Assembly: GCA_963666315.2 (NCBI GenBank)
Contig: CAXXHG010000007.1
Location: 32,001-96,000, forward strand
DNA length: 64,000 bases
Direction: 5' to 3'
DNA from: Candidatus Binatia bacterium
Lineage (GTDB): Bacteria > Desulfobacterota > Binatia > Bin18
Shown one piece after another: positions 12,845 to 49,286 of this stretch (position 1 is the first letter of the stretch; every line of letters begins with the position of its first letter). The notes below the pieces were generated by a model. The model was not told the DNA's origin and made no database searches. It saw nothing but the letters and a program-made list of their open reading frames with translations. The translations under genes were made by a program, and so were the position numbers.

Positions 12845-12893
12845 CCTTTCCTTCCTCCTATGGGATTTCTCCGATCGAAGGTAAGTCGAGGAT

Positions 12894-12933
12894 GTTACAA
12901 GAAGATGACAAAGCAATGATATATCGATGACAG
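12894..12933 (-). promoter_or_regulatory. Pho box array (four units, 11-bp period)
   Basis: Minus strand reads CTGTCAT-cgat-ATATCAT-tgct-TTGTCAT-cttc-TTGTAAC, matching the CTGTCAT-N4 PhoB consensus, 50 bp upstream of the porin-pst operon. Confidence 0.88.
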
Positions 12934-12997: not shown

Positions 12998-14323
12998 TTA
13001 AAACACTAGCTGCAGCTGAATACGCGCTTCGAGTTCATCTCTGGCTCGTCGTTTCTTGCGGGCAGTGCTGATCGTGCCAATATCCGTCTGTAATTTGATA
13101 TTCTGACCGTAGAAGTAGTAGTTCAGCGCACCACGAATTTCATCTCGTAACGTAAAATCAAGGGCGTTGTTGTTTGGATTAACAAAGGAGTACCGAAATG
13201 CGGCTTCCAGGTGGTGGGGAATGAGGAAGTAGCCGGCTTGACCATACCAACCGTGAGCATCAAACGTGCGATTTGGGCTGCCGCTGCCGAAGTCGAAGGC
13301 CCGATCCACCGTAATTTTACCGAAGTAATATTCACTGACAAGACTAAAGCCGCGCCATTTAAAGGCCGCATCCGCCGTGGATGTCCAAATATCGATATTA
13401 TCACCGCTGAACCCTGGACGAATGATAATGTTTTCTAACGCATCGTTGTCGGCGTTGAGGCGGGGGATGTCTTTTTTACCCACTTTGTTGAACTGACTTG
13501 ATAGGCCGAACGACACGCGTGGATGTTGAAGATCGTGGATCTCTGGCTCCCCGGCTGGAAAACGGCCGAGCGGGTCAAATTGGAGGCGTCCCGTATATAA
13601 ATAATCGGTCGAGCGCTGACGCTGGTTCAGGCCATTCCCGTTAAAGATACCAAACCGATAGTGCAGCCGCTTTTCCCACAGGCTACCCATCAGCTCCGCC
13701 CCGGTATCGCGGCCGACATTGAAGAAGTCATTGGCAATGGACCGTTCGGTGAACTGTAAAACGCCTATCGGTGTGATCTCCTGGCGCGACTGACCGGGCC
13801 AAAACTGGCCAAGGCGGAGCCCCAGCCAGGGCTGATATTGATAATGGAATATATAATCGATCAGCCTGACATCACCATTGAGCATCTCGGTTTGGAAAAA
13901 GTACCGCAGCTTTGGGGAGAAGGCTTGCCCTTGCCACCACAGTCGAGCCGCCGCGATCCGAAACCCACTTTCGTCTGACTGGCCAGTCGCACTCCCATCG
14001 CGGTTGGTATACCCCCACCGCGCGAGTACGCGCCCGCCAATAGCCAGTGAGTGGTTGCCATCTGCCGATTCAAACTGAAACCCTCGGCCAGGTTTGTAGC
14101 CGACCTTGGCGCGAGCCGGCGAGGTCGGCGAAGCCTGAGAAGAGTCGGAGGTGTCAGCTTTCCCTTGCAGCTCTTGATATTGCTGTTCAGTAATCTGCCC
14201 ATTGATTCGTAAGACCTTTAACAGCTCTTCGACCGTGGGATTGTCGTGGGCCAGCCCAGATGCGTGCCACGCACTGCACAGAGTCAACACAATCAGAACA
14301 ATGAGTTGTTTTTGCCACTTCAT
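12998..14323 (-). CDS. Second anion-selective porin (OprO/OprP-like)
   Basis: Signal peptide, LQFTERSIAN, GRDTG, GIFNGNG, C-terminal RIQLQLVF; N-terminal helical segment similar to that of the first porin. Confidence 0.8.
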   Translation of the reverse strand: MKWQKQLIVLIVLTLCSAWHASGLAHDNPTVEELLKVLRINGQITEQQYQELQGKADTSDSSQASPTSPARAKVGYKPGRGFQFESADGNHSLAIGGRVLARWGYTNRDGSATGQSDESGFRIAAARLWWQGQAFSPKLRYFFQTEMLNGDVRLIDYIFHYQYQPWLGLRLGQFWPGQSRQEITPIGVLQFTERSIANDFFNVGRDTGAELMGSLWEKRLHYRFGIFNGNGLNQRQRSTDYLYTGRLQFDPLGRFPAGEPEIHDLQHPRVSFGLSSQFNKVGKKDIPRLNADNDALENIIIRPGFSGDNIDIWTSTADAAFKWRGFSLVSEYYFGKITVDRAFDFGSGSPNRTFDAHGWYGQAGYFLIPHHLEAAFRYSFVNPNNNALDFTLRDEIRGALNYYFYGQNIKLQTDIGTISTARKKRRARDELEARIQLQLVF

Positions 14324-14514
14324 TCTTCACCCTTCTCCTCATTAGAAACTCGCTCATTATGCCTTAAAGTCATCGCCCGACAAACTCTTTTGAAAATAGA
14401 CAGGGCATACATTGACTTTTAGCTGGACAAGTGGCGAATCCGTTTGACACTGCTGCTAAAATGTCATAGTAGTTCGCAAGCCATCCAGATCCAATTATCG
14501 TTTTATAGGTGTTA

Positions 14515-14865
14515 ATGACACTCAAAGCACGATCAACAACATGGCTGACTTTCTCACGATTCGTATGTGTGTCGATCTGCCTTTGTGTCTTCGCCGTCCT
14601 ATCAGCTCCTCAGCTTGCAGTGCTGACATACGCAGCGCCGGCTGAGGCGGAACCTCCCAGACACGAGGGCTCAGAGAGCTCTAAGGAAGAATCGGTGGTT
14701 CACGTTGCGGCGCGTCGCAACGTGAACCACCGATTCGGCAGTCATCTCAGTCGGTCTTATGATACCTGCGACCTGCTCCGCCAAGTCGCGTCGTACGCCG
14801 GTCATTTCCCAGCGATCGTTGGCCATCAGCTTCCCAAGGGCTTCCACGCGCCTTTGCTGATTTAA
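14515..14865 (+). CDS. Hypothetical exported protein / possible leader peptide upstream of sulP
   Basis: N-terminal hydrophobic segment, acidic linker, C-terminal GHQLPKGFHAPLLI; AGGT before ATG 14515. Confidence 0.55.
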   Translation: MTLKARSTTWLTFSRFVCVSICLCVFAVLSAPQLAVLTYAAPAEAEPPRHEGSESSKEESVVHVAARRNVNHRFGSHLSRSYDTCDLLRQVASYAGHFPAIVGHQLPKGFHAPLLI

Positions 14866-15025: not shown

Positions 15026-16654
15026 ATGACTCAAGAAGCAAACCAGGTGCCGAGAGGGACACTCGAAGGACTTCGTGACGTTTGGAAGTTCGACATCCTT
15101 TCGGGTTTTCTTGTCTTTCTGATTGCGCTGCCCCTTTGTCTTGGAATCGCCCTGGCGTGCGGATACCCGGCTATTGCTGGTATCTTCACTGCGATTATAG
15201 GTGGAATGCTGGCGACCTTTTTCAGTAATTCAGAACTCACTATCAAGGGGCCGGCAGCGGGCCTTATTGTTATAGCGATTGGCTGTGTCACTGAATTTGG
15301 TTTTACCGGGGGGACGGATCCGGTTGCCGACATGCAAGCCTATCGACTCGCCCTTGGAGTCGGTGTAGCCGCCGGTATTCTTCAAATTCTCATTGGCGTG
15401 TTTCGAGCTGGGATCCTTGGCGAGTTCTTCCCTACTTCGGCAATTCACGGGTTGCTTGCCTCAATTGGCGTGATCATCATGGCTAAGCAATTCCCGGTTA
15501 CCTTGGGCTTGGGACCGGAAGGCGCGCCGTTGGAACTGCTTGCAAGGATCCCACAATTCATCATGGATATGAACCCCATTGTAGCGCTCATTGGGATCAT
15601 CAGCCTGGTCATTATGTTCGGCTGGGAACATATTAGGATTCCGCGTCTTCAGGTGATTCCTGCCCCTGTGGTGGTCCTTCTTATTGCCGTCCCGATCGGA
15701 TTATATTTCGATCTTGGTCAAGAGCACACCTATTCGTTCGGCGGCCGCGAGTATCCTCTTGGAGGAAAATTTCTCGTCAATGTCCCCGACAATATAGTCA
15801 GCGCCATCGCATTTCCAGACTTTTCTGGCGTGGCCACTACCACAGGGCTGAAGTACATATTGATGTTTGCGTTGATTGGGAGTTTGGAATCTCTGCTGAG
15901 TGCGAAAGCAATCGACGAGATTGATCCATGGCGCAGAAAAACCAACCAGGACCGTGATCTGTTTGCCGTCGGGGTGGGGAATACCGTCTCCGCTCTCGTT
16001 GGTGGGTTGCCAATGATCTCGGAAATCGTGCGGAGCAAAGCCAATATCGATAACGGGGCGAGGACGCGATTCGCCAACGTGTTCCATGGGCTCTTTTTGC
16101 TCATCTTTGTCGCGCTCTTGCCGGGATTGATCAATCAAATTCCACTTGCTGCATTGGGCGCGATGTTGGTCCGCGTTGGTTTTCGTTTAGCGGCACCGCA
16201 AGAATTTCTCCATATGTACAAAGTCGGGCGCGAACAGTTGGTCATCTTTGTCTCAACGATTATCGGTGTCTTGGCAACGGATTTGCTCAGCGGGATTGCC
16301 ATTGGCATAGGCGTCAAGGCAGCCTTCCACATTTTTAATGGCGCGCCCTGGATTTCTCTTTTTCGACTAAGAGTCAACGTCGAGCGGGGAGAGAATGACG
16401 GGGTAACGGTTGCCGTGAAAGACTCTGCAATATTCAGCACGTGGATCGGATTAAAGAAAAGATTGGAGCACTTGAAGGGGGAGCCCAAGGTGGTTCTCGA
16501 CTTATCGGAGACCTCCTTTGTTGACCACACCGTGATGGAACGGCTGAAGGAGATGCAAAATGAATTCAAGGAGAATGACTCTATATTGATCATAACCGGA
16601 TTAGACCAACACCGAAAGCTCTCGGATTATCCCACTGCCGCCCGGAAAATGTAA
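15026..16654 (+). CDS. sulP: SulP/SLC26 anion permease (probably bicarbonate) with STAS domain
   Basis: GFLVFLIALPLCLGIALA, IKGPAAGL, SLESLLSAKAID, GGLPMISEIVRSKAN, C-terminal STAS (VLDLSETSFVDHT). Confidence 0.92.
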   Translation: MTQEANQVPRGTLEGLRDVWKFDILSGFLVFLIALPLCLGIALACGYPAIAGIFTAIIGGMLATFFSNSELTIKGPAAGLIVIAIGCVTEFGFTGGTDPVADMQAYRLALGVGVAAGILQILIGVFRAGILGEFFPTSAIHGLLASIGVIIMAKQFPVTLGLGPEGAPLELLARIPQFIMDMNPIVALIGIISLVIMFGWEHIRIPRLQVIPAPVVVLLIAVPIGLYFDLGQEHTYSFGGREYPLGGKFLVNVPDNIVSAIAFPDFSGVATTTGLKYILMFALIGSLESLLSAKAIDEIDPWRRKTNQDRDLFAVGVGNTVSALVGGLPMISEIVRSKANIDNGARTRFANVFHGLFLLIFVALLPGLINQIPLAALGAMLVRVGFRLAAPQEFLHMYKVGREQLVIFVSTIIGVLATDLLSGIAIGIGVKAAFHIFNGAPWISLFRLRVNVERGENDGVTVAVKDSAIFSTWIGLKKRLEHLKGEPKVVLDLSETSFVDHTVMERLKEMQNEFKENDSILIITGLDQHRKLSDYPTAARKM

Positions 16655-16662
16655 GGAAGGTC

Positions 16663-19659
16663 TTGACACAAGTAATAGAGTCGGAACGGATTTCATTTGA
16701 ACCGACTTCAAAGCGGTTTCGATCGCTTTCCTCGGGAGAGCGAGGGCGAGTGCGCGATGCGGTCGCTGAGGCGTGTAAGCCGATTGCCCAGTCATGGCCG
16801 ATGAAGACGTTTGCTTATCGCAATCCTCTTCGCGGCTGGGAACACTTGCCGTTTGACGAGGCCATTCGCGAAGCCAAATATCTGCTGGGAGGAAACGGTT
16901 ACATCCCGAACGACGACTACCGTCAACTGTATCGGGAAGGACGTGTTACGGAGGATGCCGTCAAGCAGGCTCTGCAGGTGGTCGCCTCAAGCGTCGGTGT
17001 GCAGACTGTCACCGTAGGCCATCGTCAAGTCGTGACATCGGAAGTGTTGCGCCTGCATCTTGTGTTCGGATTCGATTCGCTGGACCCGACCCTGTTAACC
17101 TGGCAGTTTGGCGGCGGATGCGCAACAGAGCAGTTTCGAGATGATCTGCCGCCGGAGTCTAGGAAGCCACAAAACGGCGACGCGTCTTATTTGTCGAAAC
17201 TGTGGAAGAGCACGTTATCCGCGCTCGGCCTTTCTGTTGGGACCGACGATCCGCGGGCACAGGTCAGCGAGGAAGGAACGAGTCCCAGCGTTGATTTGCC
17301 TTCCGGAAGAACGCTCAGTGATTGGCTGGGATTACTGGCCGGAGCTTCTTTGGTCGATGAGATCAACGATCAGATGATAAAGTGGACCGGAGCCTTTCTT
17401 GATGAAGGAATGGCCGATTGGGAGATGCCCGGCCGGAAGGCTGGGTTTTATCGCGCGTGGCGAACGCTCGCGGCAAGGGACTTTTCTGGACGTTTCCTTG
17501 GCATCAAACAGTTCGCGACGAAGGTCCGCGATTTGCCGGACTCACCGGAAGATGCAATCGCTCGCAGCCTCCAGGGGCTTGGGATTCCCGAACAGGGATG
17601 GGCGGATTACCTGTCACGCCAGTTAGCCCAGTTGCCGGGTTGGGCCGGATTCATTCGCTGGCTGGGCGAAAACCCTGGTTATGCTGCTCAAAAACAGCAT
17701 CCGATCGACCCGCTTCAATATCTGGCAGTTCGCCTCTTCTATGAAGTCGAACTCGTCGATACGTGCTGCCGCCAAGAGTGGGGTATTGACGGGACGCTGC
17801 CGGCCCTCGTCTCCTCTTGGGAGGGGCGCAGGGATGAGTACCAGAAGCTCGGAGGGCGTGATTCGCGTGCGACCGGCCGCTATGTTCAATCCGTGTGTGA
17901 CGATGCGTGGCGCCTCTTTCATCTGGCGCAGTTTCTGCAACTGTCTCCCGACGATGTGGACACGCTTTCCCCCGCCGATGCGCGGACTCTGCTGTCTTGG
18001 TTGGACGCACTTCCCAGCGATGAGCACGGTCGGGTGTGGTTAGATGCGCTGGAGTCGAGCTATCGCAAGCAACTGATCGAGCGGCTCGCCAACCATAATG
18101 CCGAGCCAGGCACCAATGAAGACCGGACCGAAAACCGTCCGCGGGCCCAGCTTGTCTTGTGTATCGACGTGCGCTCGGAGTCGTTCCGCCGTCACATTGA
18201 GGCCCAAGGGCTCTATGTGACATTCGGCTATGCGGGCTTCTTCGGCATTCCCATCAGCTTTCAAGCGTTCGACAGCTCGGCACGGGCCGCTTTGTGTCCG
18301 GTCATCGTGCCGCCGGGGTTCAACGTCGATGAGGTTCCGCGTGGCGGCGAAGAAGGGCCACTCAACCATTACGCGGTGGGATCGAGGTGGAACCAACTCG
18401 GCGAGCACCTGTTTCATGCCTTAAAGAGCAATCCAGTCTCGTCGTTGATGTTGATAGACGTGCTGGGCCTGTTTTTTAGCGCGCGGCTGTTCGGAAAAAC
18501 GTTTTTGCGCATGCCGTACGAAGCGATCAAGGCGCGTGTACATGACTGGTTTATTGGTTCGGTGGCGACCCAGATCCCCGTCGATCGCACGGAAGATGGA
18601 CAAGACGGACACGCTGAACCGCCCGCCGGACCGCCGCACGGTTTCACACCAGAGGAACAGGCGACGTTTGTTGAAAAAGGACTGCGGGCGATTGGACTGA
18701 CACGGAACTTCGGCCGGTTCATCGTGCTGTGCGGCCACGGTAGCACGTCAGACAATAATCCCTTTTTCGCCGCGTATAACTGCGGCGCGTGTGGCGGCGG
18801 TCATGGCGATCCGAATGCGCGGGTGTTCGCGGCGATGGGGAATCGGGGGCACGTCCGGCGCGCTCTTAAAGAGCATGGACTGGATATTCCGGACGACACA
18901 CGGTTCCTTGCCGCCAAACATAACACAGCGACCGACCGAGTCTCGTTTTATGACGTACAAGATGTGCCGACGAGCCACGCCGACGACCTCCGTCGGCTCA
19001 CCGAGGACTTGGAAGAGGCCGGCCGCCATCAGGCGCTCGAACGATGCCATCGCATACCGCAAGCGCCCACGGACATTTCGCCGCAAGCCGCCACGGACCA
19101 CATGCTGTCGCGTACGGTCGACTGGACGAATGTTCGGCCCGAATGGGGCTTGTCCAGCAACGCTGCTTTCATTCTAGGACGCCGTTCGCTCACCAAAGAC
19201 CTTGATTTGGGTGGGCGGGTCTTTCTGCACTCCTACGATCCGGACGCTGATACTGAGGGGGCTATCCTCGAAGCGCTCATGAATGCACCAGTGGTCGTTG
19301 CGCAGTGGATTAGCATGGAATACTACTTCTCGGCCGTTGATCCGGTCGTCTACGGAAGCGGCAGCAAAGTGACGCACAATGTGGTCGTTGGTGTCGGTGT
19401 GATGCACGGCAGCCACGGTGACTTACAATCGGGCTTGCCGTTGCAGAGCGTCAACAACGGCCCGCGGCACTATCACGAACCGGTCCGTCTGTTGGTCATC
19501 GTCGATGCACCCAGGAGCCGTATTGCCGCTGTCATCGCCAAGCACACTCAGTTACAACACTTGTTCCAAAACCAATGGATCGGCCTGGTGGCGATGGATC
19601 CGGTGACTCGAGATTTTCACCGATTTCGCCCAGACGCGACGTGGGAGGTGTGCCAGTGA
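16663..19659 (+). CDS. dabA: DUF2309 / DabA (MpsB-like) beta-carbonic-anhydrase-fold subunit of an inorganic carbon pump
   Basis: WPMKTFAYRNPL, LPGWAGFIRW, Zn ligands CIDVRSE, GHGS and NCGACGG, RPEWGL, FLHSYD, YGSGSKVTHNV, HEPVRL. Confidence 0.93.
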   Translation: MTQVIESERISFEPTSKRFRSLSSGERGRVRDAVAEACKPIAQSWPMKTFAYRNPLRGWEHLPFDEAIREAKYLLGGNGYIPNDDYRQLYREGRVTEDAVKQALQVVASSVGVQTVTVGHRQVVTSEVLRLHLVFGFDSLDPTLLTWQFGGGCATEQFRDDLPPESRKPQNGDASYLSKLWKSTLSALGLSVGTDDPRAQVSEEGTSPSVDLPSGRTLSDWLGLLAGASLVDEINDQMIKWTGAFLDEGMADWEMPGRKAGFYRAWRTLAARDFSGRFLGIKQFATKVRDLPDSPEDAIARSLQGLGIPEQGWADYLSRQLAQLPGWAGFIRWLGENPGYAAQKQHPIDPLQYLAVRLFYEVELVDTCCRQEWGIDGTLPALVSSWEGRRDEYQKLGGRDSRATGRYVQSVCDDAWRLFHLAQFLQLSPDDVDTLSPADARTLLSWLDALPSDEHGRVWLDALESSYRKQLIERLANHNAEPGTNEDRTENRPRAQLVLCIDVRSESFRRHIEAQGLYVTFGYAGFFGIPISFQAFDSSARAALCPVIVPPGFNVDEVPRGGEEGPLNHYAVGSRWNQLGEHLFHALKSNPVSSLMLIDVLGLFFSARLFGKTFLRMPYEAIKARVHDWFIGSVATQIPVDRTEDGQDGHAEPPAGPPHGFTPEEQATFVEKGLRAIGLTRNFGRFIVLCGHGSTSDNNPFFAAYNCGACGGGHGDPNARVFAAMGNRGHVRRALKEHGLDIPDDTRFLAAKHNTATDRVSFYDVQDVPTSHADDLRRLTEDLEEAGRHQALERCHRIPQAPTDISPQAATDHMLSRTVDWTNVRPEWGLSSNAAFILGRRSLTKDLDLGGRVFLHSYDPDADTEGAILEALMNAPVVVAQWISMEYYFSAVDPVVYGSGSKVTHNVVVGVGVMHGSHGDLQSGLPLQSVNNGPRHYHEPVRLLVIVDAPRSRIAAVIAKHTQLQHLFQNQWIGLVAMDPVTRDFHRFRPDATWEVCQ

Positions 19660-20144
19660 AATCGAGCCGCAACTCTACGCTGACGATCAAGACCTGTACC
19701 TTTTTCCTCATCTGGCTGCTCTTGTCTGAGAGCTTTGCCGGACTGCATGTAGTATTGGGGGTCGTCGTGGCCTTCGGTGTCGCCTGGTTGAACACCGACC
19801 GCTCCTCAACTTGCTCGTCTATCCGCGGCTGGCGCATGTTGTGGTACTTCCCCTGGTTGGTGGGCCGCATTCTGCAGAGTGGTTGCCATCTTTCTATGCT
19901 CATTCTGAATCCGGCTCTCCCCATCGACCCGAAGATGATTCGTCACCGGACCGAGTTGCAAGACGACGATCACATTGTGCTGCTCGGCAATTCCATCACG
20001 TTGACACCTGGCACGATCACCGTCGAGGTCGATTCTCAGGATTTGGTCATCCACGCCATGGACGACAGTTCCGCCGCCGACGTTACGAGCCGGCGAATCG
20101 AGCAGCGGATTGACAGCGTATTTATCGCGAGAGGTACAAAATGA
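19656..20144 (+). CDS. mrpE: Mrp/Mnh antiporter subunit E
   Basis: LGNSITLTPGTITV, IHAM; GTGA overlap with the dabA stop. Confidence 0.9.
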   Translation: MKSSRNSTLTIKTCTFFLIWLLLSESFAGLHVVLGVVVAFGVAWLNTDRSSTCSSIRGWRMLWYFPWLVGRILQSGCHLSMLILNPALPIDPKMIRHRTELQDDDHIVLLGNSITLTPGTITVEVDSQDLVIHAMDDSSAADVTSRRIEQRIDSVFIARGTK

Positions 20145-20410
20145 ACGCTTTTTTCCTGTTCGTGCTGATGACCATCACCCTTCTGATTGCCATCTACTTA
20201 TACCGCGTTCTTCGTGGACCGACGGTGTTTGACCGGGTGTTGGGTCTGAACGGAATCTCGACCAAGGCGATCATCCTGCTGGTCGTGATCGGCACCTTCT
20301 ACGAACGCGTCGACATGTTTGTGGATATTTCAACCGGCTATGCTTTGTTGAACTTGGTTGGCTCGCTAGCCATCGTCAAGTATCTGGAAGAACGGAAGGA
20401 GATCTTTTAA
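20141..20410 (+). CDS. mrpF: Mrp/Mnh antiporter subunit F
   Basis: RVLRGPTVFDRV, YALLNLVG; three TM segments. Confidence 0.9.
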   Translation: MNAFFLFVLMTITLLIAIYLYRVLRGPTVFDRVLGLNGISTKAIILLVVIGTFYERVDMFVDISTGYALLNLVGSLAIVKYLEERKEIF

Positions 20411-20748
20411 TGTCTCTGAATAAACTATCTGAAGCAGCACAATGGGTCATCACGCCGGTGTCGATCGGCTTGATTCTGGTTGGCTTGTTCTTTCTGTTCG
20501 TGGCGGCAATCGGAGTACTGCGCTTTCCGGACGTCTATACGCGGTCGCACGCCGTCTCGCTGACCGATTCATTGGGTGCGTTTTTTCTGCTGGGCGGATT
20601 GGCACTGTATGAAGGTTTGAGTACCAACCTGGTCAAGATCCTGGTCGTACTCGTCCTGTTGTACTTGCTGAATCCGGTTATCACCCACGCCACGGTTCGA
20701 TCGGCGTATCGTTGCGGCCTTCAACCTTGGAGCAAAGACGACGCATGA
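20410..20748 (+). CDS. mrpG: Mrp/Mnh antiporter subunit G
   Basis: GVLRFPDVYTRSHA, LNPVITHA. Confidence 0.92.
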   Translation: MSLNKLSEAAQWVITPVSIGLILVGLFFLFVAAIGVLRFPDVYTRSHAVSLTDSLGAFFLLGGLALYEGLSTNLVKILVVLVLLYLLNPVITHATVRSAYRCGLQPWSKDDA

Positions 20749-21275
20749 TCTATTCGATCGAGATCCCGCTCTTGATTCTGCTGCTTATGACCGCTGCAGG
20801 TGCGATCATTGTAAAGGACTTGATCAGCTCGGTTTTTATTTTGGGGACATATAGCTTTCTGCTCGCCCTTGTGTGGGCGTGGCTGGGGGCGGTGGATGTG
20901 GCTTTTGTTGAAGCCGTGGTGGGAGCTGGTTTGGCGACGGTGTTCTTTTTATTGACGCTTTTCGGAACGGCGCCGAAAGACATACGCATTCGGCGATCCG
21001 CACCGCCGCTAACTGCCTTTGTCGGGCTGCCTGTGCTCGGACTGTTGTTGTTATACGCGGCGGAAGATCTTCCTAAATTCGCGGACCCGCATTCGCCGGC
21101 CAGCCTCCATGTGTCCCCTGCGTACCTTACAAACAGCCTGAAAGAGATGGACACACCAAACGTCGTGACGGCGGTGCTGATGGATTATCGGGCGTTCGAC
21201 ACGCTGATTGAAACCGCAGTGATCTTTATCGCCGGCCTCGCCTGCGCTTTGCTGTTGCGGAGGAATCAAGAATGA
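20745..21275 (+). CDS. MrpB-related subunit (DUF4040 plus MnhB N-terminal part, MbhD/E-like)
   Basis: AVDVAFVEAVVGAG, TPNVVTAVLMDYRAFDTLIE. Confidence 0.85.
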   Translation: MIYSIEIPLLILLLMTAAGAIIVKDLISSVFILGTYSFLLALVWAWLGAVDVAFVEAVVGAGLATVFFLLTLFGTAPKDIRIRRSAPPLTAFVGLPVLGLLLLYAAEDLPKFADPHSPASLHVSPAYLTNSLKEMDTPNVVTAVLMDYRAFDTLIETAVIFIAGLACALLLRRNQE

Positions 21276-21721
21276 TCCACGCACACGACAGCATCATAGT
21301 CCGGACGACGAGCCGGATACTGATTCCGTTGATCCAGTTGTTTGGGCTGTACGTCCTGTTCTTTGGCCAATTGGGACCGGGTGGCGGGTTCGCCGGCGGA
21401 GTCATACTGGGCACGAGCCTCATTTTGGGGATCCTCGTATTTGGTCCGGATGCTCCCGTGTGTCGCTTGGCGAGCAAGGTCATTCATGGTGAGGGGGTTG
21501 GACTGATGATCTTTGTCGGCGTCGGAGGATTGTGCTTGATCGGAGGTGGCGAATTTTTGAACTACGGGAACCTGGACATCCCTTGGATCGATTCCGCCGC
21601 GCGGCGACGTTCCCTGGGTATTGTGTTGACCCAAATTGGGGTCGCCGTAGATATCGCCGTCACGGCAATCTCGATTGTTATAAGTTTGTCGCTCATTAAC
21701 AGCGAGGAATCTCATGATTGA
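21272..21721 (+). CDS. mrpB: Mrp/Mnh antiporter subunit B
   Basis: GQLGPGGGFAGGVI motif. Confidence 0.87.
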   Translation: MIHAHDSIIVRTTSRILIPLIQLFGLYVLFFGQLGPGGGFAGGVILGTSLILGILVFGPDAPVCRLASKVIHGEGVGLMIFVGVGGLCLIGGGEFLNYGNLDIPWIDSAARRRSLGIVLTQIGVAVDIAVTAISIVISLSLINSEESHD

Positions 21722-22109
21722 GTTTATCGAAGCGGCCCTGCAAAGACCCAACTTCATCGCCTTTGTGGTGCTGTTTCTTTGGGGTCTTTTCATCATGAAC
21801 ACCCATCCAAACCTGGTGAAGAAACTGATCGGCATGTACATTGTCCAGACAAGCATCCTGCTTTTGATCGTCACAATTGGTGTCAAGCAGGAGGCAACCG
21901 TTCCCATCCTGCAGGGAAGCGACGCGGTGCTGTCCACAGCGGACCAGATGTCCCCGCCCAATTACACCAATCCCTTGCCACACGTTTTGACCTTAACGGC
22001 AATCGTGGTGCAAGTCGCGACCTTGGGCGTCTCGCTGGCTTTGGTCACCGCACTCTACCGGAAATACGGCAGCCTGGATGAAGACGAGATTCTGCAGAAG
22101 ATTGAATGA
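21714..22109 (+). CDS. mrpC: Mrp/Mnh antiporter subunit C
   Basis: NLVKKLIG, NPLPHVLTLTAIVV, YGSLDEDE. Confidence 0.92.
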   Translation: MIEFIEAALQRPNFIAFVVLFLWGLFIMNTHPNLVKKLIGMYIVQTSILLLIVTIGVKQEATVPILQGSDAVLSTADQMSPPNYTNPLPHVLTLTAIVVQVATLGVSLALVTALYRKYGSLDEDEILQKIE

Positions 22110-23602
22110 GCGACCATCTTCCTGTGATCCTGTTTTTGCTGCCCTTTGCGACGGCCATCTGCCTGCCGATGGTTGGTGCGAGACGGTCCGCTTGGTGTCG
22201 TCCAATGGCGTTGACGGCCTTGCTTGCCATGTGCGTCGTGGCAGTGATCAATGTTTGGATCGTTGTCGAGCATGGGGATACGCGGTACGCATTTGGCGGC
22301 TGGCCCATCAGTACAAGTCTGCCAGATCACCCGCTTGGCATCGAATGGGTCAACGATGGTTTGGCGAGTGCGATGCTCGTCGTGCTCAGCTTCCTGGCCT
22401 GGTTGTGTTTGTTCTATAGCGGACCTCTCACGCCACGGTCACTGGGTGCGCGCGAGGTCCTGTACTACGCCTTGCTGCTGCTCTTGATTTCTGGTTTGAC
22501 CGGGATTGTGCTGGCTGGGGATATCTTTAATGTCTTCGTGTTTCTGGAAGTTGCGGCACTGTCTGCCTATGGGCTGGTCGGGATTCCCGGCGGTCGAGCG
22601 CTGATTGTTGCGTTTCGATATCTCATCCTGGGAACGCTCGGTGCTTCGTTTTACCTGCTGGGGGTCGTTTTCTTTTATGCATCAACAGGCACCTTGAATA
22701 TGGCGGATCTCGCGCAGCAAATGGCCGCCAAGCCGGAATTGATGGCCTCGAAAGCGGTCATCGGCGGGACCACGTTTATGCTCATCGGTCTCGGAATCAA
22801 GATGGCGCTGTTTCCACTTCATGGTTGGCTACCCGGCGCCTATACCCGCGCTCCAGACTCGATTTCGCCGCTGCTCGCTTCCCTGATGACAAAAGTTGCC
22901 CTGTATGGATGGGTCCGCATCATGTTTTGGGTGCTTGGCGCTCGTGCGGAAATTGGGCAAGTCCACTTGCTGACATTACTAAGCGGACTGGGTTCCCTGG
23001 CGGCCGTGGCTGGTGCCCTGTTGGCATTACGCCAACAGGACGTGAAGCGGATGTTTGCGTATGGCGGCATTTCCCACGTCGGCTTGATCCTGATTGGAGT
23101 GAGTCAGGGGAACCAAACCGGCTTTGCGGGGAGCATGTTCTACCTGATCAACGACGCCGTCATGCAAGCTGGACTGTTCTTCATCGCAGGGGCGGCAATT
23201 CACCAGTATGGAGCGCGAACGGTGGAAGACCTGTCGCGTTTGCGGCGATCACCCTGGATGATCGGTGCGATCATTGTATTGGCAATGTCCATGATTGGCA
23301 TTCCACCAACCGGCGGGTTCTTTGGGAAATGGTACATTATCCTGGGTGCCATCGAAGCGGGCAACTATCTGGCTGTTGCAGCCGTCGTTGTCGCTACGTT
23401 GTTGACGATGGCGTATTTTCAACGCGTGTTCGTCCGCATTTTTGACGACACTCAAGAGTCGTCAACCACGGACGATGCTGACATGCATCCGGCCCTGAAA
23501 CTGAGTATGGGACTGACCGCGGGAGCGGTCATTGCCTTGGGGTTCTGGAGCGACCCCATAATCAGGTTTTTCCGGGAAGTGGCTGCAACCGCTGGCCTGT
23601 GA
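22106..23602 (+). CDS. mrpD: Mrp subunit D (antiporter-like proton-conducting subunit)
   Basis: DIFNVFVFLEV, IKMALFPLHGWLPGAY, KRMFAY, GIPPTGGFFGKW. Confidence 0.9.
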   Translation: MSDHLPVILFLLPFATAICLPMVGARRSAWCRPMALTALLAMCVVAVINVWIVVEHGDTRYAFGGWPISTSLPDHPLGIEWVNDGLASAMLVVLSFLAWLCLFYSGPLTPRSLGAREVLYYALLLLLISGLTGIVLAGDIFNVFVFLEVAALSAYGLVGIPGGRALIVAFRYLILGTLGASFYLLGVVFFYASTGTLNMADLAQQMAAKPELMASKAVIGGTTFMLIGLGIKMALFPLHGWLPGAYTRAPDSISPLLASLMTKVALYGWVRIMFWVLGARAEIGQVHLLTLLSGLGSLAAVAGALLALRQQDVKRMFAYGGISHVGLILIGVSQGNQTGFAGSMFYLINDAVMQAGLFFIAGAAIHQYGARTVEDLSRLRRSPWMIGAIIVLAMSMIGIPPTGGFFGKWYIILGAIEAGNYLAVAAVVVATLLTMAYFQRVFVRIFDDTQESSTTDDADMHPALKLSMGLTAGAVIALGFWSDPIIRFFREVAATAGL

Positions 23603-23641
23603 CAAATTTTTATATCGAATTATATTAATGGAACAATTTTA

Positions 23642-25861
23642 ATGTCGGTTGTGTATGTCCTGATACCCCTTTTACCCTTGCTTGCCAGCATCATTATCGC
23701 GTTCGCCGGGCGGCGCTTGGGGCAAGACAGTGGTAAGCTCGGTGTGCTCGCGATCGGCATCTCATTTGCTTTGTCGGTCGCAGCCTTCGTTCAGGTCGTC
23801 CTCCAAAGTGACCCAATTGTCATCAGTCTGTACGAACTGCTTCGGTCTGGAAATCTGAGTGTCGAACTGGGCTTGTATGTTGACCAACTTGCTGTATTGC
23901 TGCTGCTGTTAGTGACCGGCGTGAGCCTTGTGGTTCACGTGTACTCCTCCCGCTACATGATCGGGGACGCGCGCTACAGCCGGTTCTTCGCTGTGATGGC
24001 CCTGTTTACTTTTGGCATGCTGACGCTAGTCATGAGTAGCAACCTGCTCATGATGTTCATGTGCTGGGAAGTCATGGGCATCTGCTCCTATCTGCTGATC
24101 TCCCACCAATCCGATCGAAAGGCGGCTTGCAACGCGGCGACAAAGGCCTTTCTCGTCAACGCCGTGGCCGACATTGGTCTGTTGTTCGGCATCATTCTGA
24201 CCTTTGCCACGTTCGAGACGCTGGATGTCCGGCAGATCCTCAGTCAGTCCGCGAGCGTCAGCGGACAGACCATCAACCTGCTGGCATGGGTTGGCTTTGA
24301 ATGGCACGTTCGTACGGTCACGTTGATCACGCTCTTGCTGTTTATGGGATGCTTGGGTAAATCGGCTCAGGTTCCATTCCATGTGTGGTTGCCTAACGCA
24401 ATGGAGGCCCCAACCCCCGTCTCGGCACTGATTCACGCTGCCACGATGGTCAATGCCGGGCCTTATTTGTTGGTTCGATTCAGCGACTTGGTACTACTGT
24501 CGCCTGCGGCGATGATGGTGATCGCCATTATCGGTGCAACGACCGCGCTGTTCGCCGCGATGGTCGCTCTGACGCAGAGCGATATCAAGAAGATCCTCGC
24601 CTATTCCACGATCAGCCAAATCGGTTTCATGATCATGACATGTGGCCTGGGGGCGTTTATGGTGGCTATCTTTCATATGTTGGCTCACGGATTCTTGAAG
24701 GGCTTCCTGTTTTTATCGACAGGCAACGAGCTCGCATCAGCCGGCTCGCACGCACACCACGTACCCACACGACCGAAACTGTTGTCGCCGGTATCCCTCG
24801 GGGCGTTGATCCTGGCCTGTGCTCCGCCCGCGCTGATCTTCTCGGGTCCATATGGGGCACTGTGGACGGTCCACAATTCGAGCGCCGCTCAGATCGCTTT
24901 CTGGGTGATCGGCTTGCTGACCGTCTTCTTCACGGCCATGTATCTTTTTCGCGGACTTACCTCGTTGTTTCAGCCAGCCACATCCGCGCTCGTTCAGCCG
25001 CGGTTCTTTTCCCCTTTGCATCTCGTGGCTATCATCGTCGGATCGCTCGGGTTGATCAGCACTTTGTTGGCGCTCTGGGTGTGGTTTGTACCGTTCCTGG
25101 CACCGGCAATAGCGACGCCATATCCACTCGTCGAGGGCTTCTGGCAGACGAGTCACGTGCCGTTGCTCGTATTGGCCCTGGTGGCGGCGCTGGCTGGCTG
25201 GGGCTTGGCGGCGCTGCTTCAGGCAAGACCCATGCTGTCCGCCGTTCCTCGCTTGCACTTCGCACAAACGATGTACGTGCTGTTTCTCAACAAATTCTAT
25301 TTCGATGAGGCGTATAGCCTGTACATCGTTCAGCCCATGGTCCGAATGGTCAAGTGGCTGTGGCGTGAGATCGACGTTGGCGTCATCAACGGTCTGATCC
25401 ATGGGATGGCTGCGAGGTTGGTTCGCTTTGGCCAGTGGCTGTGGGAGACAGTCGACGTTCGCGGTATTGATGACGTGGTTCGTCGTCTTGCAAGGAATAC
25501 TGTCCTTTTTGGCCGGTGGCTGTGGGAGACAGTCGACGTTCGCGGTATTGATGACGTGGTTCGTCGTCTTGCAAGGAATACTGTCCTTTTTGGCCGGTGG
25601 CTGTGGGAGACAGTCGACGTTCGCGGTATTGATCGCATGGTCGTCGAAGGTGGTCAACAGAGTGCGGGGCTATCCCAGTGGCTGTGGGAGGCAGTCGACG
25701 TTCGCCGAATCGAGAAAGGCGCGGACCAAGTAGATCGTGCAGCCGAAGCCAGCGGGAAGAAACTGAACGAAGTCGAACCACGGCCGATTCAAGACCACTT
25801 GGGTGTGTTGATCGCATGGTTAGTCGCGGTCATCCTGTTTTTCTATTGGCTCGTATTATAA
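23642..25861 (+). CDS. NuoL/DabB-like antiporter-like subunit with repeat-extended C-terminal lateral helix
   Basis: WEVMGICSYLLI, GKSAQVPFHVWLPNAMEAPTPVSALIHAATMVNAG, DIKKILAYSTISQIG, KFYFDEAY followed by WLW..D repeats and one final TM. Confidence 0.9.
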   Translation: MSVVYVLIPLLPLLASIIIAFAGRRLGQDSGKLGVLAIGISFALSVAAFVQVVLQSDPIVISLYELLRSGNLSVELGLYVDQLAVLLLLLVTGVSLVVHVYSSRYMIGDARYSRFFAVMALFTFGMLTLVMSSNLLMMFMCWEVMGICSYLLISHQSDRKAACNAATKAFLVNAVADIGLLFGIILTFATFETLDVRQILSQSASVSGQTINLLAWVGFEWHVRTVTLITLLLFMGCLGKSAQVPFHVWLPNAMEAPTPVSALIHAATMVNAGPYLLVRFSDLVLLSPAAMMVIAIIGATTALFAAMVALTQSDIKKILAYSTISQIGFMIMTCGLGAFMVAIFHMLAHGFLKGFLFLSTGNELASAGSHAHHVPTRPKLLSPVSLGALILACAPPALIFSGPYGALWTVHNSSAAQIAFWVIGLLTVFFTAMYLFRGLTSLFQPATSALVQPRFFSPLHLVAIIVGSLGLISTLLALWVWFVPFLAPAIATPYPLVEGFWQTSHVPLLVLALVAALAGWGLAALLQARPMLSAVPRLHFAQTMYVLFLNKFYFDEAYSLYIVQPMVRMVKWLWREIDVGVINGLIHGMAARLVRFGQWLWETVDVRGIDDVVRRLARNTVLFGRWLWETVDVRGIDDVVRRLARNTVLFGRWLWETVDVRGIDRMVVEGGQQSAGLSQWLWEAVDVRRIEKGADQVDRAAEASGKKLNEVEPRPIQDHLGVLIAWLVAVILFFYWLVL
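25354..25758 (+). repeat. Intragenic 81-bp (27-aa) tandem repeat, five units
   Basis: Units start at 25354, 25435, 25516, 25597 and 25678 (each GTGGCTGTGG); units 2 and 3 are identical in DNA; protein unit WLWETVDVRGIDDVVRRLARNTVLFGR. Confidence 0.95.
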
Positions 25862-25896
25862 CAATTTATAACAAGGCGCCCTGAAGAGTTGATGCT

Positions 25897-27387
25897 ATGA
25901 ATGAACACCTGCTGTCTTTGATTATTTCCGTTCCTTTTGTTGGCATTGTGGTCCTGGCATTCGCGCCAAGCGAGCCGTGGATGCGGCGAATTGCGCTTGG
26001 CTGCACGCTGCTGGCCTTCGGGCTCTTCCTGATTCTCTGGTCCGGGTTCGACCCCAATGAGCAGGGCATGCAGTTTGTGGAGCGTATGCAGTGGATGCCG
26101 ACATTCAACATTCAATATGCGGTTGGCGTAGATGGCATCAGCATCCTCTTGGTGTTGCTCACAACACTGCTGTCCCCTCTGTGCGTGTTGTGTTCGTGGA
26201 CTTCGATCACCTCGCACGTGCGGGCCTTCATGATGCTGATTCTCCTGGTCGAAGGCGCCATGCTGGTGGTTTTTACGGCCCTGGACCTGTTCCTGTTCTT
26301 TATGATGTGGGAAGTCACGATGATTCCTATGTACTTTATGATCATCCTCTGGGGCGGACCCGGACGGATTGCCGCGGGGTTGAAGTTCATCCTGTATAGT
26401 TTGACGGGAAGCCTACTGCTGCTCGTGGGGATTCTGGGACTTTACGTCCAAGGCGGACATACTTTTGACATGATTGCCCTGGCGGAGCAGACCTATTCTT
26501 CCACATCCCAGTTTTGGATGTTTCTAGCTTTCATGTTGGCCTTTGCCATCAAGCTTCCGATGTTTCCGTTTCACACCTGGCTGCCTGACGCCCACGCTGA
26601 GGCGCCCACGGCCGGCAGTGTCATTTTGGCCGGCGTGCTTTTGAAAATGGGCGGATATGGATTCTTGCGGATTTGTCTGCCGATCCTTCCCGATGCGTCA
26701 GCGAGCTTTGCTCCCTTTATGCTCTGGTTGTCGGTTGTGGCGATTCTGTACGGCGGGTTTATGGCCCTCGCCCAGGACGACATCAAAAAGCTTGTCGCCT
26801 ATTCGTCGATCTCTCACATGGGGTTCGTTACGCTGGGTATCTTCGTTTTCAATAGCCAGGGGATCCAAGGCGCGATTCTCCAAATGTTCAACCACGGGAT
26901 CGTCACCGGGGCGATGTTCCTTGCGGTCGGCGTGTTATACGACCGCACGCACAGCCGACTGATCGGGGACTACGGCGGGCTGCACAAACAGATGCCACGG
27001 TTTGTCGCCCTGTTTTGTGTTTTCTCGGTGGCATCTTTCGGGCTGCCGGGGACGTGCGGTTTTATTGGCGAGGTCCTGGTATTGCTTGGCACCTCAGAGG
27101 AGAGTTTCGTTCTGGTCTTACTCGCCATGGGAGGCATCGTACTGGCGGCGTCTTACATTCTATGGATGTTCCAACGAGTGGCGTTGGGACAGGCTGGCAC
27201 GCAAGTCGCCTCGCAGCTTTCTGACATCACCGTCCGTGAAACGGTAACTCTCGCGCCGCTCGCCCTGGTGGTGTTTGCTGTCGGCGTCTATCCACGCCCA
27301 CTTATGGAATTGATCGACGCCGGCGTCACCAAACTCGTGGAACTGACTCGTCAGGGACTGCCGCCCGAGATAACGGGCCTTTTCTAG
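25897..27387 (+). CDS. NuoM-like antiporter-like subunit
   Basis: GVDGIS, WEVTMIPMYFMI, KLPMFPFHTWLPDAHAEAPTAGSVILAGVLLKMGGYG, KKLVAYSSISHMG. Confidence 0.92.
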   Translation: MNEHLLSLIISVPFVGIVVLAFAPSEPWMRRIALGCTLLAFGLFLILWSGFDPNEQGMQFVERMQWMPTFNIQYAVGVDGISILLVLLTTLLSPLCVLCSWTSITSHVRAFMMLILLVEGAMLVVFTALDLFLFFMMWEVTMIPMYFMIILWGGPGRIAAGLKFILYSLTGSLLLLVGILGLYVQGGHTFDMIALAEQTYSSTSQFWMFLAFMLAFAIKLPMFPFHTWLPDAHAEAPTAGSVILAGVLLKMGGYGFLRICLPILPDASASFAPFMLWLSVVAILYGGFMALAQDDIKKLVAYSSISHMGFVTLGIFVFNSQGIQGAILQMFNHGIVTGAMFLAVGVLYDRTHSRLIGDYGGLHKQMPRFVALFCVFSVASFGLPGTCGFIGEVLVLLGTSEESFVLVLLAMGGIVLAASYILWMFQRVALGQAGTQVASQLSDITVRETVTLAPLALVVFAVGVYPRPLMELIDAGVTKLVELTRQGLPPEITGLF

Positions 27388-48112: not shown

Positions 48113-48176
48113 ACTATCAATAGTCTGGACTATCAGTAGTCGGACAGACAGATTTCACAGGAAGGCTCTCTCTCAC

Positions 48177-48550
48177 ATGATACACATCGACCATCTAACC
48201 AAGTGGATCGGTTCCTTCACCGCCGTCGACGAGCTGTGCCTCGACATTCGTGAAAGCGAGATTTTCGGCTTCCTCGGCCCGAACGGCGCGGGCAAGACCA
48301 CCACCATCCGCATGATGATGGGTCTCCTCAAGCCGACTGCCGGGCGGATTGTATTAGGCGACTACGATTTGGCTATTGACCCGATTGCGGCGAAAGCGCA
48401 GACCGGATTTGTTCCGGACCAACCGCATGTCTACGACAAAATCACCGGTCGAGAGTTTCTCCATTTTGTGGGTGGTCTCTACCAGATGCCCGCTTCCAGC
48501 CTGCATCAAAAGACTGAGGAGTCGCTCAGCACTTTTAGCCTCTTAGAGTG
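48177..48550 (+). pseudogene. ABC transporter ATPase truncated before the signature and Walker B motifs
   Basis: GPNGAGKTT and GFVPDQP present; similarity ends at FSLLEW. Confidence 0.8.
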
Positions 48551-48934
48551 GGGCCGGAATGGGCTCCGGCGTCGAGACCGAGCCGGGCGCCGCAAGGCAG
48601 TGATCTTGAGTTCTGTGAAGAGCAGCGATTACAGCCGTTCAAAGGCATTGTTAAAGTACGCGGCAAATTGCTGCGGTTTCCTGATGACATGGAACGGGAC
48701 GATATTACTCGGTCAATCGAGCATGAATTTTTGCCGATGATCGAAAAGGAAAAGACGGACGTACCGCCGCCATCGGAAGGGATGATGCTGGGTGCATCTT
48801 TTGGGACACAACCTTTGGCGCCGGGAGAATATGTGATCGAGTTGGACACGCCCGGCACGATTATCAGCGGTGACTATGACAATGCGCCGTGACTGACGCA
48901 AGTAATCGTAGTTTCTGGGTCTCAAAAAAAGGAC

Positions 48935-49117: not shown

Positions 49118-49286
49118 ACCCTACACCCGCCTGAGGACCTATCTGGGAAGTAGTTTGGATATAGACCTGCCCGAGATCGTGCCATAGAGGGCGAATATGG
49201 GCGTCTGGGATGGGCTGGAGGGCGTGTGCCTCGATCGGCATGAGCGCTGTATCCATATTTTGTCCTCTTCTCACTGAACGCAACAA

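Follow-up and report, generated by a model that had tools for sequence, protein, structure and literature searches.

A DabA carbonic-anhydrase-like gene in a conserved operon with Mrp-type and complex I-type membrane subunits: a candidate multi-subunit inorganic-carbon pump

In a stretch of 64,000 nucleotides from the genome of a Candidatus Binatia bacterium (assembly GCA_963666315.2, contig CAXXHG010000007.1, positions 32,001 to 96,000 of the forward strand; hereafter the window), eleven intact genes lie on the + strand at 15026-27387, in the order sulP-dabA-mrpE-F-G-MbhD/MbhE fusion-mrpB-C-D-NuoL-like-NuoM-like according to their Pfam matches. The most economical reading of this operon is that of a multi-subunit pump for inorganic carbon. 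I favour, with some reserve, the view that the genes encode one complex, in which DabA (DUF2309), a beta-carbonic-anhydrase-like protein, sits on the distal NuoL-like end of an arm with three antiporter-like subunits and works as a vectorial carbonic anhydrase driven by an ion gradient; the physical attachment of the Mrp subunits and the direction and kind of ion flow are the parts of this view that I infer. Its two halves differ in strength. From alignments and a predicted complex it appears highly probable that DabA, bound to the NuoL-like protein, is active as a vectorial carbonic anhydrase, while membership of the Mrp subunits in the same complex, for which gene order and conservation speak, is probable to a lesser degree.

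The genes are packed tightly (Table 1). Seven junctions, from dabA through mrpD, overlap by 1-8 nucleotides: dabA and mrpE by 4 with the mrpE start at GTG 19656, upstream of which stands GGGAGG, E and F by 4, F and G by 1, G and the MbhD/MbhE fusion by 4 (ATG 20745), the fusion and B by 4, B and C by 8, and C and D by 4. The remaining genes are separated by 8 nucleotides (sulP to dabA), 39 (mrpD to the NuoL-like gene) and 35 (NuoL-like to NuoM-like gene). An earlier note, made by a model from the letters of the window (the original prediction), had described a tight eleven-gene operon here, with the dabA stop overlapping the mrpE start and most mrp junctions overlapping, and all of this is recovered. 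The mrp genes thus sit between dabA and the predicted partner gene, that of the NuoL-like protein, which follows about 4 kb downstream of dabA. MrpB, C, D, E, F and G and the C-terminal domain of MrpA each score above the Pfam cut-off. An N-terminal MrpA subunit (MrpA-N) of the MrpA type is absent from the cluster; the sole candidate, the NuoL-like protein, groups with DabB and not with the MrpA proteins of the genome. As the original prediction had also held, Pfam detects no hydrogenase, Fe-S or NuoH-type domain, including the MbhM-type anchor and NiFe domains, in the cluster or its immediate flanks, and NuoH, NuoA, NuoJ, the Q-module and CupA/CupB are likewise absent from the cluster.

The linkage of dabA and mrp genes recurs widely. 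In a scan that started from DabA, with one genome per species, 40 loci were compared with the eleven proteins of the window by tblastn, and mrpE directly follows dabA in 32 of them (32 of the 36 that are assessable). The full series through nuoM is present in 20 of these 32, the contig ends inside the series in the other 12, and no deviating order occurs. Among the eight loci lacking mrpE, four are contigs that end at or just past dabA (L009, L021, L039, L043), and the other four hold the most distant DabAs: the Manganitrophaceae loci L036, L037 and L040 with the order NuoL(-NuoM)-DabA, and L032, with a half-length DabA followed by a NuoL-like gene. A second scan, starting from the MrpD-like protein, gave 80 loci from metagenomes, 55-92% identical, some of which recur in the first set (for example L100/L016 and L099/L017). 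Here dabA lies upstream of mrpE in 44 loci, 28 contigs stop before mrpE and 8 extend less than 600 bp beyond it, so that no locus with at least 600 bp upstream of mrpE is without dabA (44/44 assessable loci linked). The NuoL-like gene follows mrpD in 70 of the 80, the other 10 contigs ending first, and all 80 are colinear with the window as far as they reach. The original prediction stood or fell with this adjacency of DUF2309 and mrp genes, which proves strictly conserved in both surveys. With one colinear order shared by 32 genome and 80 metagenome loci, the arrangement is, as far as gene order can tell, far beyond chance.

According to the titles of their records, the hosts of the linked loci are Planctomycetota (DabA 64-94% identical to that of the window) and Nitrospirota (about 53%). 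The DabA tree unites the Mrp-linked proteins in a single clade (20 rows; Shimodaira-Hasegawa-like approximate likelihood ratio test, SH-aLRT, 100), which splits into reciprocally monophyletic Planctomycetota and Nitrospirota halves with support of 100 each, and all genes of the cluster share the same pattern of divergence between the phyla; the tree and this shared pattern indicate that the cluster has a single origin. SulP is facultative: it stands upstream in 10 of the 32 genome loci (as a close orthologue in 7) and, among the 18 metagenome loci whose contigs extend more than 2 kb beyond dabA on the upstream side, in 10. The parallel bicarbonate route that the original prediction assigned to SulP therefore keeps its gene in the window, but not as a constant part of the cluster.

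Some observations on these loci stand apart. The nearest metagenome-assembled genomes, those of L005 and L008 (DabA 89-94% identical), are titled 'uncultured Enterobacteriaceae', probably a taxonomic mislabel. At L032 an open reading frame (ORF) of 514 amino acids matches the N-terminal half of DabA only (62% identity) and is followed by a DabB-type gene and the contig end; DabA may be split or rearranged here, or the assembly may be at fault. In the Nitrospirota loci (L015-L044) dabA and mrpE are separated by a spacer of 335-573 bp (for example L023:12980-13388), which reaches 1.8-1.9 kb in the metagenome loci L094 and L103. Its sequence is conserved yet in different frames across loci, so that it looks non-coding; the spacer of one Nitrospira locus has no Rfam match at E<=1, and the stretch possibly serves as a regulatory RNA or internal promoter.

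DabA itself bears the marks of a functional enzyme. It matches the solved DabA2 (9rd0_A) with 388 bits, and the motifs CIDVRSE, GHGS and CGACGG, whose zinc ligands the original prediction had called conserved, align with those of DabA2; the ligands C500, D502, H692 and C707 are indeed invariant in 23/23 aligned DabAs. In the membrane finger, Asp599 aligns with Glu444 of DabA2, and all 23 sequences have Asp or Glu at this position. The accessible text of the DAB2 preprint describes the finger residue Glu444 as occupying the place of Lys399/Asp400 of NuoL. The coupling motif of DAB1, NNPYESALDCGACGG as quoted from the available parts of the DAB1 literature, is altered, its Glu being Phe or Tyr in all Mrp-linked DabAs.

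The subunit that most likely carries DabA, going by the predicted complex, is the NuoL-like one, because it is a sister of DabB, has lost the Lys/Asp of transmembrane helix (TM) 12 and is predicted to bind the finger, which would place DabA at the distal end of the arm. The protein passes the complex I model TIGR01974 NDH_I_L (466 bits, cut-off 407) and stays far below that of the NdhF3 family (TIGR01960, 180 bits, cut-off 589); its scores in the PDB are 273 bits against complex I NuoL, 142 against MrpA and 124 against DabB2. A PF00361 tree was computed from the three proteins of the window with orthologues from two loci per phylum (Planctomycetota, Nitrospirota), the genome's NuoL, NuoM and NuoN, its second NuoL/NuoM pair and two MrpA/MrpD pairs, six annotated plasmid DabBs and the DabA-adjacent proteins of L032, L036, L037 and L040. 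Within this quick tree, the ten DabB-type proteins have the NuoL-like clade as their sister (SH-aLRT 95), and complex I NuoL of the genome falls outside this pair. Set among DabB, MrpA and NuoL, as the original prediction had in mind, the protein therefore falls beside the DabB clade and not inside it. In TM12, the NuoLs and MrpA of the genome read FSKD or FSKE, whereas the NuoL-like clade reads FSGPY and has lost the Lys/Asp as DabB has. In contrast to the six plasmid DabBs, the clade keeps TM5 Glu, TM7 Lys and TM8 His-Ala-Ala-Thr, and the protein of the window has TM11 Lys as well; TM5 Glu, the residue that faces the neighbouring subunit, is lost in all six plasmid DabBs. Judged by alignment and tree, the NuoL-like protein is probably the equivalent of DabB, and it is the only lateral-helix-bearing subunit of the MrpA-N type in the set.

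The complex was predicted from NuoL-like residues 1-500 and DabA residues 481-980, each entered as an alignment, in three runs. The interaction prediction score from aligned errors (ipSAE) was 0.79, 0.79 and 0.78, against 0.00 for the best of three controls; the score mark of this prediction is reached by 58/80 solved complexes and 2/110 mismatched pairs. The runs share at least 86% of their contacts, with a predicted local distance difference test (pLDDT) value of at least 80 for the partner. In the predicted interface, the finger (DabA 586-606) lies against NuoL-like residues 344-355 (TM11; His345, His349, Lys353) and 398-478, and the NuoL-like protein is thus predicted to take up the membrane finger of DabA. 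The original prediction had the redox head of a membrane arm replaced by a CO2-hydrating head. The catalytic residues are kept, as this demands, but DabA would be located at the distal NuoL-like end and not at the site of the redox head, so that on the predicted structure the replacement is an analogy and not an anatomical homology.

Past TM15, the NuoL-like protein carries five tandem repeats of 27 codons in its lateral helix. Tandem Repeats Finder reports a period of 81, 2.6 copies and 99% matches at 25427-25633, two repeats of the window being identical. No contig of four public runs spans 25464-25604; their contigs break at the repeat, and the copy number in the window thus rests on the assembly. 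Counted by eye, the window and L005 have five copies each, five other Planctomycetota loci have three, and most Nitrospirota loci have four, with five in L031 and L042. Among NuoLs of DabA-NuoM-NuoL loci without Mrp genes, L051 has one and L054 three (by eye) and L052 three (regular-expression count); the latter method finds one unit in the second NuoL of the genome and two in the NuoL of complex I. One repeat, as a helix, would span an estimated 40 Å, roughly the width of one antiporter-like subunit, and a longer lateral-helix clamp fits a longer arm. A single-chain model of the NuoL-like protein (18-row alignment) reached a mean pLDDT of 59.6, with 30-40 in the repeat region, too poor for use of its fold. 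Elsewhere in the same genome, outside the window, lie the second NuoL/NuoM pair (C7:1-3245), a canonical nuoL-M-N (C10:164966-170285) and two canonical Mrp operons (C30, C47), in the first of which MrpA is found as two ORFs (46570-47118 and 47245-49338).

The other two antiporter-like subunits appear intact. The NuoM-like protein has complex I NuoM as its best PDB match (431 bits), falls inside the complex I NuoM clade of the tree and keeps TM5 Glu, TM7 Lys, TM8 Lys and TM12 Glu; the MrpD-like protein finds MbhH (6cfw_H), MrpD (7qru_D) and MbsH (6u8y_H) as its best PDB matches and keeps TM5 Glu, TM7 Lys, TM8 Lys and TM12 Lys. Since the small Mrp subunits are strongly conserved, with MrpF about 74% identical between Planctomycetota and Nitrospirota as against about 53% for DabA, their sequences argue that they are functional. 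Less clear is which ion they would carry. According to the accessible text of Steiner and Sazanov, the Na+ path in the Mrp complex of A. flavithermus comprises MrpA E706, D792 and E796, MrpC H37 and H40, and MrpF D35. I aligned the corresponding proteins with the solved Mrp chains, which reproduces the published numbering, and counted residues over all linked loci. The MbhD/MbhE fusion aligns with MrpA residues 652-810 of 6z16_A; the equivalents of D792 and E796 are kept in 85/85 orthologues, and that of E706 is Gly in 85/85, with an invariant Glu four residues earlier. In MrpC, the equivalent of H37 is Thr in 102/103 and that of H40 is Ile or Leu in 103/103, and a Gln next to position 37 is invariant (103/103). 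In MrpF, the equivalent of D35 is Asn in 68, Ala in 10 and Ser in 1 of 79 linked orthologues, and that of D29 is kept in 79/79. Stand-alone Mrp relatives, compared for MrpF and MrpC only, likewise lack the MrpF Asp and both MrpC His. Because several residues of the Bacillus-type path are changed, coupling to sodium, and with it the H+/Na+ exchange of the original prediction, is left unproven, and from these alignments Na+ is a rather doubtful candidate for the coupling ion.

In the proposed complex, MrpE, MrpF, MrpG, the C-terminal domain of MrpA (the MbhD/MbhE fusion), MrpB and MrpC would form one end of the membrane arm, and the three antiporter-like subunits would follow in the order MrpD-like, NuoM-like, NuoL-like. 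The finger of DabA would be inserted where the NuoL-like protein has lost its own TM12 Lys/Asp, as in the solved DAB2. By extension from DAB1 and DAB2, the buried zinc site of DabA would convert CO2 diffusing into the cell to bicarbonate, and ion movement through the membrane arm would make the hydration one-way. Several ions could be spent in each turnover, or a second kind of ion could contribute energy, Na+ being possible but unproven, and SulP, where present, would offer a parallel bicarbonate route outside the complex. A bolder formulation, which I hold only tentatively, is that of a third kind of machine built on the Mrp/complex I arm, non-redox, of about ten subunits, with a DabA head, a chain of three antiporter-like subunits and a lateral-helix clamp of 27-residue repeats.

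Several points weigh against the single complex. Genes of one operon, which is what the gene order offers, need not encode one complex, and the complex prediction covered the pair of DabA and NuoL-like protein only; its score may moreover stem in part from likeness to the solved DAB2 and DAB1. Both trees are quick searches with midpoint roots, that of PF00361 holding 34 proteins with long DabB branches. The Na+-path residues of the Bacillus-type Mrp (MrpF D35, MrpC H37/H40, MrpA E706) are changed in all linked clusters. The repeat number is 3, 4 or 5 among loci of identical gene content, and also 3 in L052 and L054, which lack Mrp genes; the lateral helix is therefore no simple ruler of the number of subunits. 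Finally, the two modules also exist apart, presumably working, as DabA-NuoM-NuoL without Mrp and as Mrp clusters without DabA.

This last point leads to the origin of the cluster. DabA is found in 4 of 401 sampled genomes of the window's phylum, and the three others have no Mrp genes at the locus: DabA-NuoM-NuoL occurs in G197 (twice, in tandem) and G227, and NuoL-x-DabA in G192. In G197 (C4:503000-535000, loci L051/L052) it is the whole DabA-NuoM-NuoL unit that is duplicated, its two NuoLs having 1 and 3 repeats. Matches to the MrpD-like protein at E<=1e-60 are present in 118 of the 401 genomes, with a best non-self identity of 42%, as against 59% to the Nitrospira orthologues. Three stand-alone Mrp clusters that were examined (G105, G197, G078) have no DabA and three antiporter-like genes after mrpC. 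The order is MrpE-F-G-MbhD-MbhE-MrpB-C-D-D'-D'' in G105 and G197, and in G078 an MrpB match lies between mrpE and mrpF; in G105, the only one of the three scanned with Pfam, all three antiporter-like genes match PF00361 and the last encodes 580 amino acids with a C-terminal extension. A P-type cation ATPase gene precedes the cluster of G105 on the same strand (L055:3951-6671). In the window, the NuoL-like and NuoM-like genes occupy the places of the last two antiporter-like genes of a stand-alone cluster. Both modules exist separately in the same phylum, and the gene orders make the cluster look like a merger of a DabA-NuoM-NuoL system with an Mrp of the stand-alone type, in which dabA came to lie at the front. 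G110, a genome of the same genus, has syntenic flanks, with about 4 kb in place of the 17.6 kb of the window and no DabA.

The strongest alternative is accordingly that of two co-transcribed machines, a three-subunit DAB (DabA, NuoL-like, NuoM-like) and a reduced Mrp antiporter (E, F, G, the C-terminal domain of MrpA, B, C, D), linked by physiology: the antiporter would remove the proton that arises per bicarbonate and could sustain a Na+ gradient for symport of the SulP/BicA type. G197, which carries both modules on different contigs, fits this well, as do the SulP genes that accompany many loci. MBH, the membrane-bound hydrogenase, works with a single antiporter-like subunit, which would be the lot of the reduced Mrp as well. 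The Nitrospira literature, in its accessible parts, reads mrp, nuoL/nuoM and bicA as a cooperation of antiporter and transporter. However, the Mrp part would be left with one antiporter-like subunit and no lateral-helix subunit, whereas its stand-alone relatives have three antiporter-like subunits. Furthermore, the mrp genes, with their overlapping starts and stops, stand between dabA and the genes of its partners, and the linkage of dabA in 44/44 assessable loci found from the MrpD side is not what a free-standing antiporter would lead one to expect, as such an antiporter should sometimes occur without dabA. The NuoL-like protein also keeps the inter-subunit coupling residues and an extended lateral helix. 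For these reasons I consider two machines an unlikely explanation, albeit one to be taken seriously, and retain the single complex.

A role primarily as cation/proton antiporter for salt or alkaline pH homeostasis, with DabA as an accessory that either delivers protons of CO2 hydration to the cytoplasmic side or adjusts the antiporter to CO2 or bicarbonate, and with carbon supply as a by-product, appears improbable. It agrees with the readings published for the Nitrospira loci, as far as their accessible text goes, and with the apparently marine provenance of many hosts (record titles, one seawater run). The two further canonical Mrp operons of the window's genome can be held for it, since they show that Mrp biology matters there, but equally against it, since they already cover homeostasis. 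DabA, moreover, keeps every catalytic and coupling feature of the CO2 pumps, the complementarity of DabA and beta-carbonic anhydrase described below points to bicarbonate supply, and the residues of the Bacillus-type Na+ path are changed. That the genes are fortuitous or decaying neighbours without joint function, for which only the general caution that neighbours need not interact can be invoked, is hardly credible with all 11 ORFs intact, an order kept in two phyla at DabA identities of 53-94%, and small subunits conserved as much as DabA or more.

The closest characterised systems are DAB2 and DAB1 (Halothiobacillus neapolitanus, Thermocrinis albus) and MpsAB (Staphylococcus aureus), with which the cluster shares the PF10070 DabA family, its zinc ligands and acidic finger, a PF00361 partner without the TM12 Lys/Asp, and a predicted interface that resembles the solved one in kind. 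The DAB papers, in their accessible parts, describe complexes of two (DabA-DabB) and three subunits (DabA-DabB-DabC), and DabC of DAB1 is reported there to overlay the NuoM helices next to NuoL. The partner differs here in its 739 amino acids, as against about 490-575 in six plasmid DabB ORFs, in passing the NuoL model, in keeping TM5 Glu and TM7 Lys, and in its long repeated lateral helix. In contrast to DAB there are eight more membrane subunits, and dabA comes first with its partner well downstream; in contrast to DAB1, the Glu of the coupling motif is replaced.

Parts of the arrangement are on record. The COGNAT study (2017), in its available text, gives for 'clade C' of YbcC (COG3002) a ybcC that precedes a homologue of nuoL and is accompanied by NuoM (COG1008) and SulP (COG0659). 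The DabA-NuoM-NuoL loci of G197 and G227 are of this type and represent the sister group in the DabA tree; they have the same NuoL-like and NuoM-like partners at 35-52% identity and often SulP nearby, but none of MrpE, F, G, the C-terminal domain of MrpA, B, C or D in the examined loci, nor are these mentioned in the available text of that study. For Ca. Nitrospira alkalitolerans, Daebeler (2020) describes, in the accessible text, a 'group 3' Mrp locus that also holds nuoM/nuoL-like genes, bicA and nhaB, read as a Na+/H+ antiporter, and a comparative study of lineage IV Nitrospira (2025) gives, in its accessible part, the same group 3 locus the same reading. From its gene content, this published locus is very probably the same cluster as in the Nitrospirota loci found here. 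DabA or DUF2309 is not mentioned in the accessible main text of these accounts, and the gene may stand unnamed in a supplementary figure. The literature search, outside which supplements and many papers in subscription journals fall, found no paper that links DabA/DUF2309 to Mrp small subunits in one operon. The original prediction had suspected an undescribed arrangement; this may hold for the link itself, but does not for its parts.

The logic of the proposed pump, a CO2-hydrating protein on a NuoL-type end beside a NuoM-type subunit, is also that of a cyanobacterial system. CupA sits on NdhF3 in cyanobacterial NDH-1MS. Complexes of the NDH-1MS and MS' types, with CupA/CupB and NdhF3/NdhD3 or NdhF4/NdhD4, are described in the literature. 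They differ from the present cluster in the hydratase family (Pfam gives no Cup family match here) and in the NdhF3 family, to which the NuoL-like protein does not belong; the cluster, moreover, has no redox module, and the base of its arm is Mrp-type. With Mrp and with MBH and the membrane-bound sulfane reductase (MBS) of Pyrococcus, the cluster shares its small subunits in MBH gene order (E, F, G, MbhD/E, B, C, D), and MrpC, MrpD and MrpF have MBH/MBS chains as best PDB matches. Unlike MBH/MBS, it has no MbhM/NuoH-type, hydrogenase or Fe-S subunit; unlike Mrp, it has a NuoL/DabB-type protein in place of MrpA-N and an extra complex I-type NuoM, and several Na+-path residues of the Bacillus-type Mrp are changed. 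The arm of MBH/MBS style that the original prediction proposed is hence borne out by the small-subunit order from E-F-G to D, but not by the NuoL-like and NuoM-like proteins, which are of the complex I/DabB type and would derive from DabA-NuoM-NuoL and not from MBS.

The SulP protein is only weakly BicA-like, with 123 bits in the NCBIfam BicA model (cut-off 880) and 161 in that of DauA (cut-off 614). The operon is flanked by two OprO/P porins upstream on the opposite strand and by PadR and MgtE downstream. The porin genes, of the anion-selective type, stand in tandem at 11459-12916 and 12998-14323 (- strand), divergent from the operon; close copies are found near the cluster only in the two nearest metagenome-assembled genomes (L005, L008), with distant ones in three further loci. 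From their family, an anion route through the outer membrane is conceivable. Between porins and sulP lies orf118, with relatives in 13 loci (tblastn), where they precede sulP/dabA on the same strand. It has no Pfam match at E<=1, nor have two orthologues checked with it, and an Atlas search returned only clusters of hypothetical proteins; orf118 is possibly an accessory gene of the Planctomycetota form of the cluster. In the region upstream of sulP in the window, Rfam gives just two matches to miRNA families at chance level.

Table 1. Genes and sequence elements of the cluster and its upstream neighbour in the window
Feature	Position	Strand	Basis
orf118, small protein, N-terminal hydrophobic/signal-like segment, no known family	14509..14865	+	ORF translation
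SulP-family anion transporter, candidate bicarbonate transporter	15026..16654	+	PF00916, E 5e-57
DabA (DUF2309), beta-carbonic-anhydrase-like cytoplasmic subunit, 998 aa	16663..19659	+	PF10070, E 1e-263, profile positions 1-747 of 747
DabA CIDVRSE motif, residues 500-506, zinc ligands Cys500 and Asp502	18160..18180	+	alignment to DabA2
DabA membrane finger, residues 586-606, with acidic Asp599	18418..18480	+	alignment to DabA2
DabA stretch from GHGS His692 to CGACGG Cys707 (zinc ligands), includes NNPFFAAYNCGACGG	18736..18798	+	alignments
MrpE (MbhA-like), likely start GTG 19656; longest ORF from 19575	19656..20144	+	PF01899, E 7e-31
MrpF (MbhB-like)	20141..20410	+	PF04066; best PDB matches MBH and MBS subunit F
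MrpG (MbhC-like)	20410..20748	+	PF03334; TIGR01300 above cut-off
Fused MbhD and MbhE, the C-terminal (NuoJ-like) domain of MrpA; B' of the original prediction	20745..21275	+	PF13244 and PF20501; NF009159 159 bits (cut-off 141)
MrpB (MnhB, MbhF-like)	21272..21721	+	PF04039, E 1e-22
MrpC (NuoK-like, MbhG-like)	21714..22109	+	PF00420; best PDB matches MBS and MBH subunit C
MrpD-like antiporter-like subunit, 498 aa	22106..23602	+	PF00361
NuoL-like subunit, 739 aa, probable DabB equivalent	23642..25861	+	PF00361 and PF00662
Five tandem 27-codon repeats (WLWxxVDxRGIDxxV...), NuoL-like residues 572-706	25355..25759	+	alignment after TM15
NuoM-like antiporter-like subunit, 496 aa	25897..27387	+	PF00361, E 1e-76

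The window's genome, of 92% completeness, has one DabA besides the two further canonical Mrp operons, and neither a RuBisCO large subunit nor a carbonic anhydrase of the beta (PF00484) or alpha (PF00194) family was found in it at this completeness. As neither RuBisCO nor these carbonic anhydrases were found, the gene content suggests that the complex may be the main bicarbonate supplier of the cell. MpsAB and carbonic anhydrase are described, in the accessible literature, as two alternative systems for the supply of dissolved inorganic carbon. DabA and beta-carbonic anhydrase are complementary in four genomes, those of the window, G197 and G192 having DabA without PF00484 and G110 the opposite, and this either/or pattern of gene presence, though four genomes are few, points to a role in bicarbonate supply.

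The DAB pumps have recently been solved as machines of two or three subunits, and how ion flow makes their reaction one-way is still being worked out. What is new here, as read from the genes, is a DabB-like channel that is chained to two intact antiporter-like subunits and an Mrp-type small-subunit module, and that keeps the coupling residues TM5 Glu and TM7 Lys lost in stand-alone DabBs. This suggests a larger CO2-capturing pump than the known ones of two or three proteins. If the proposed complex is real, the DAB pumps with two and three subunits may represent reduced forms of this kind of arm, and the scaffold of complex I and Mrp could power a non-redox reaction. Such a pump would also offer a tractable model of long-range, complex I-type coupling along antiporter-like subunits, in which the chemistry at the end is a simple hydration, and more parts would become available for engineering CO2 capture into crops and industrial microbes. 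Carriers of the cluster include Nitrospira, which are key oxidisers of nitrite, and marine Planctomycetota; the mrp-nuoL/nuoM part of the Nitrospira cluster has so far, in the accessible literature, been taken for a salt/pH antiporter.

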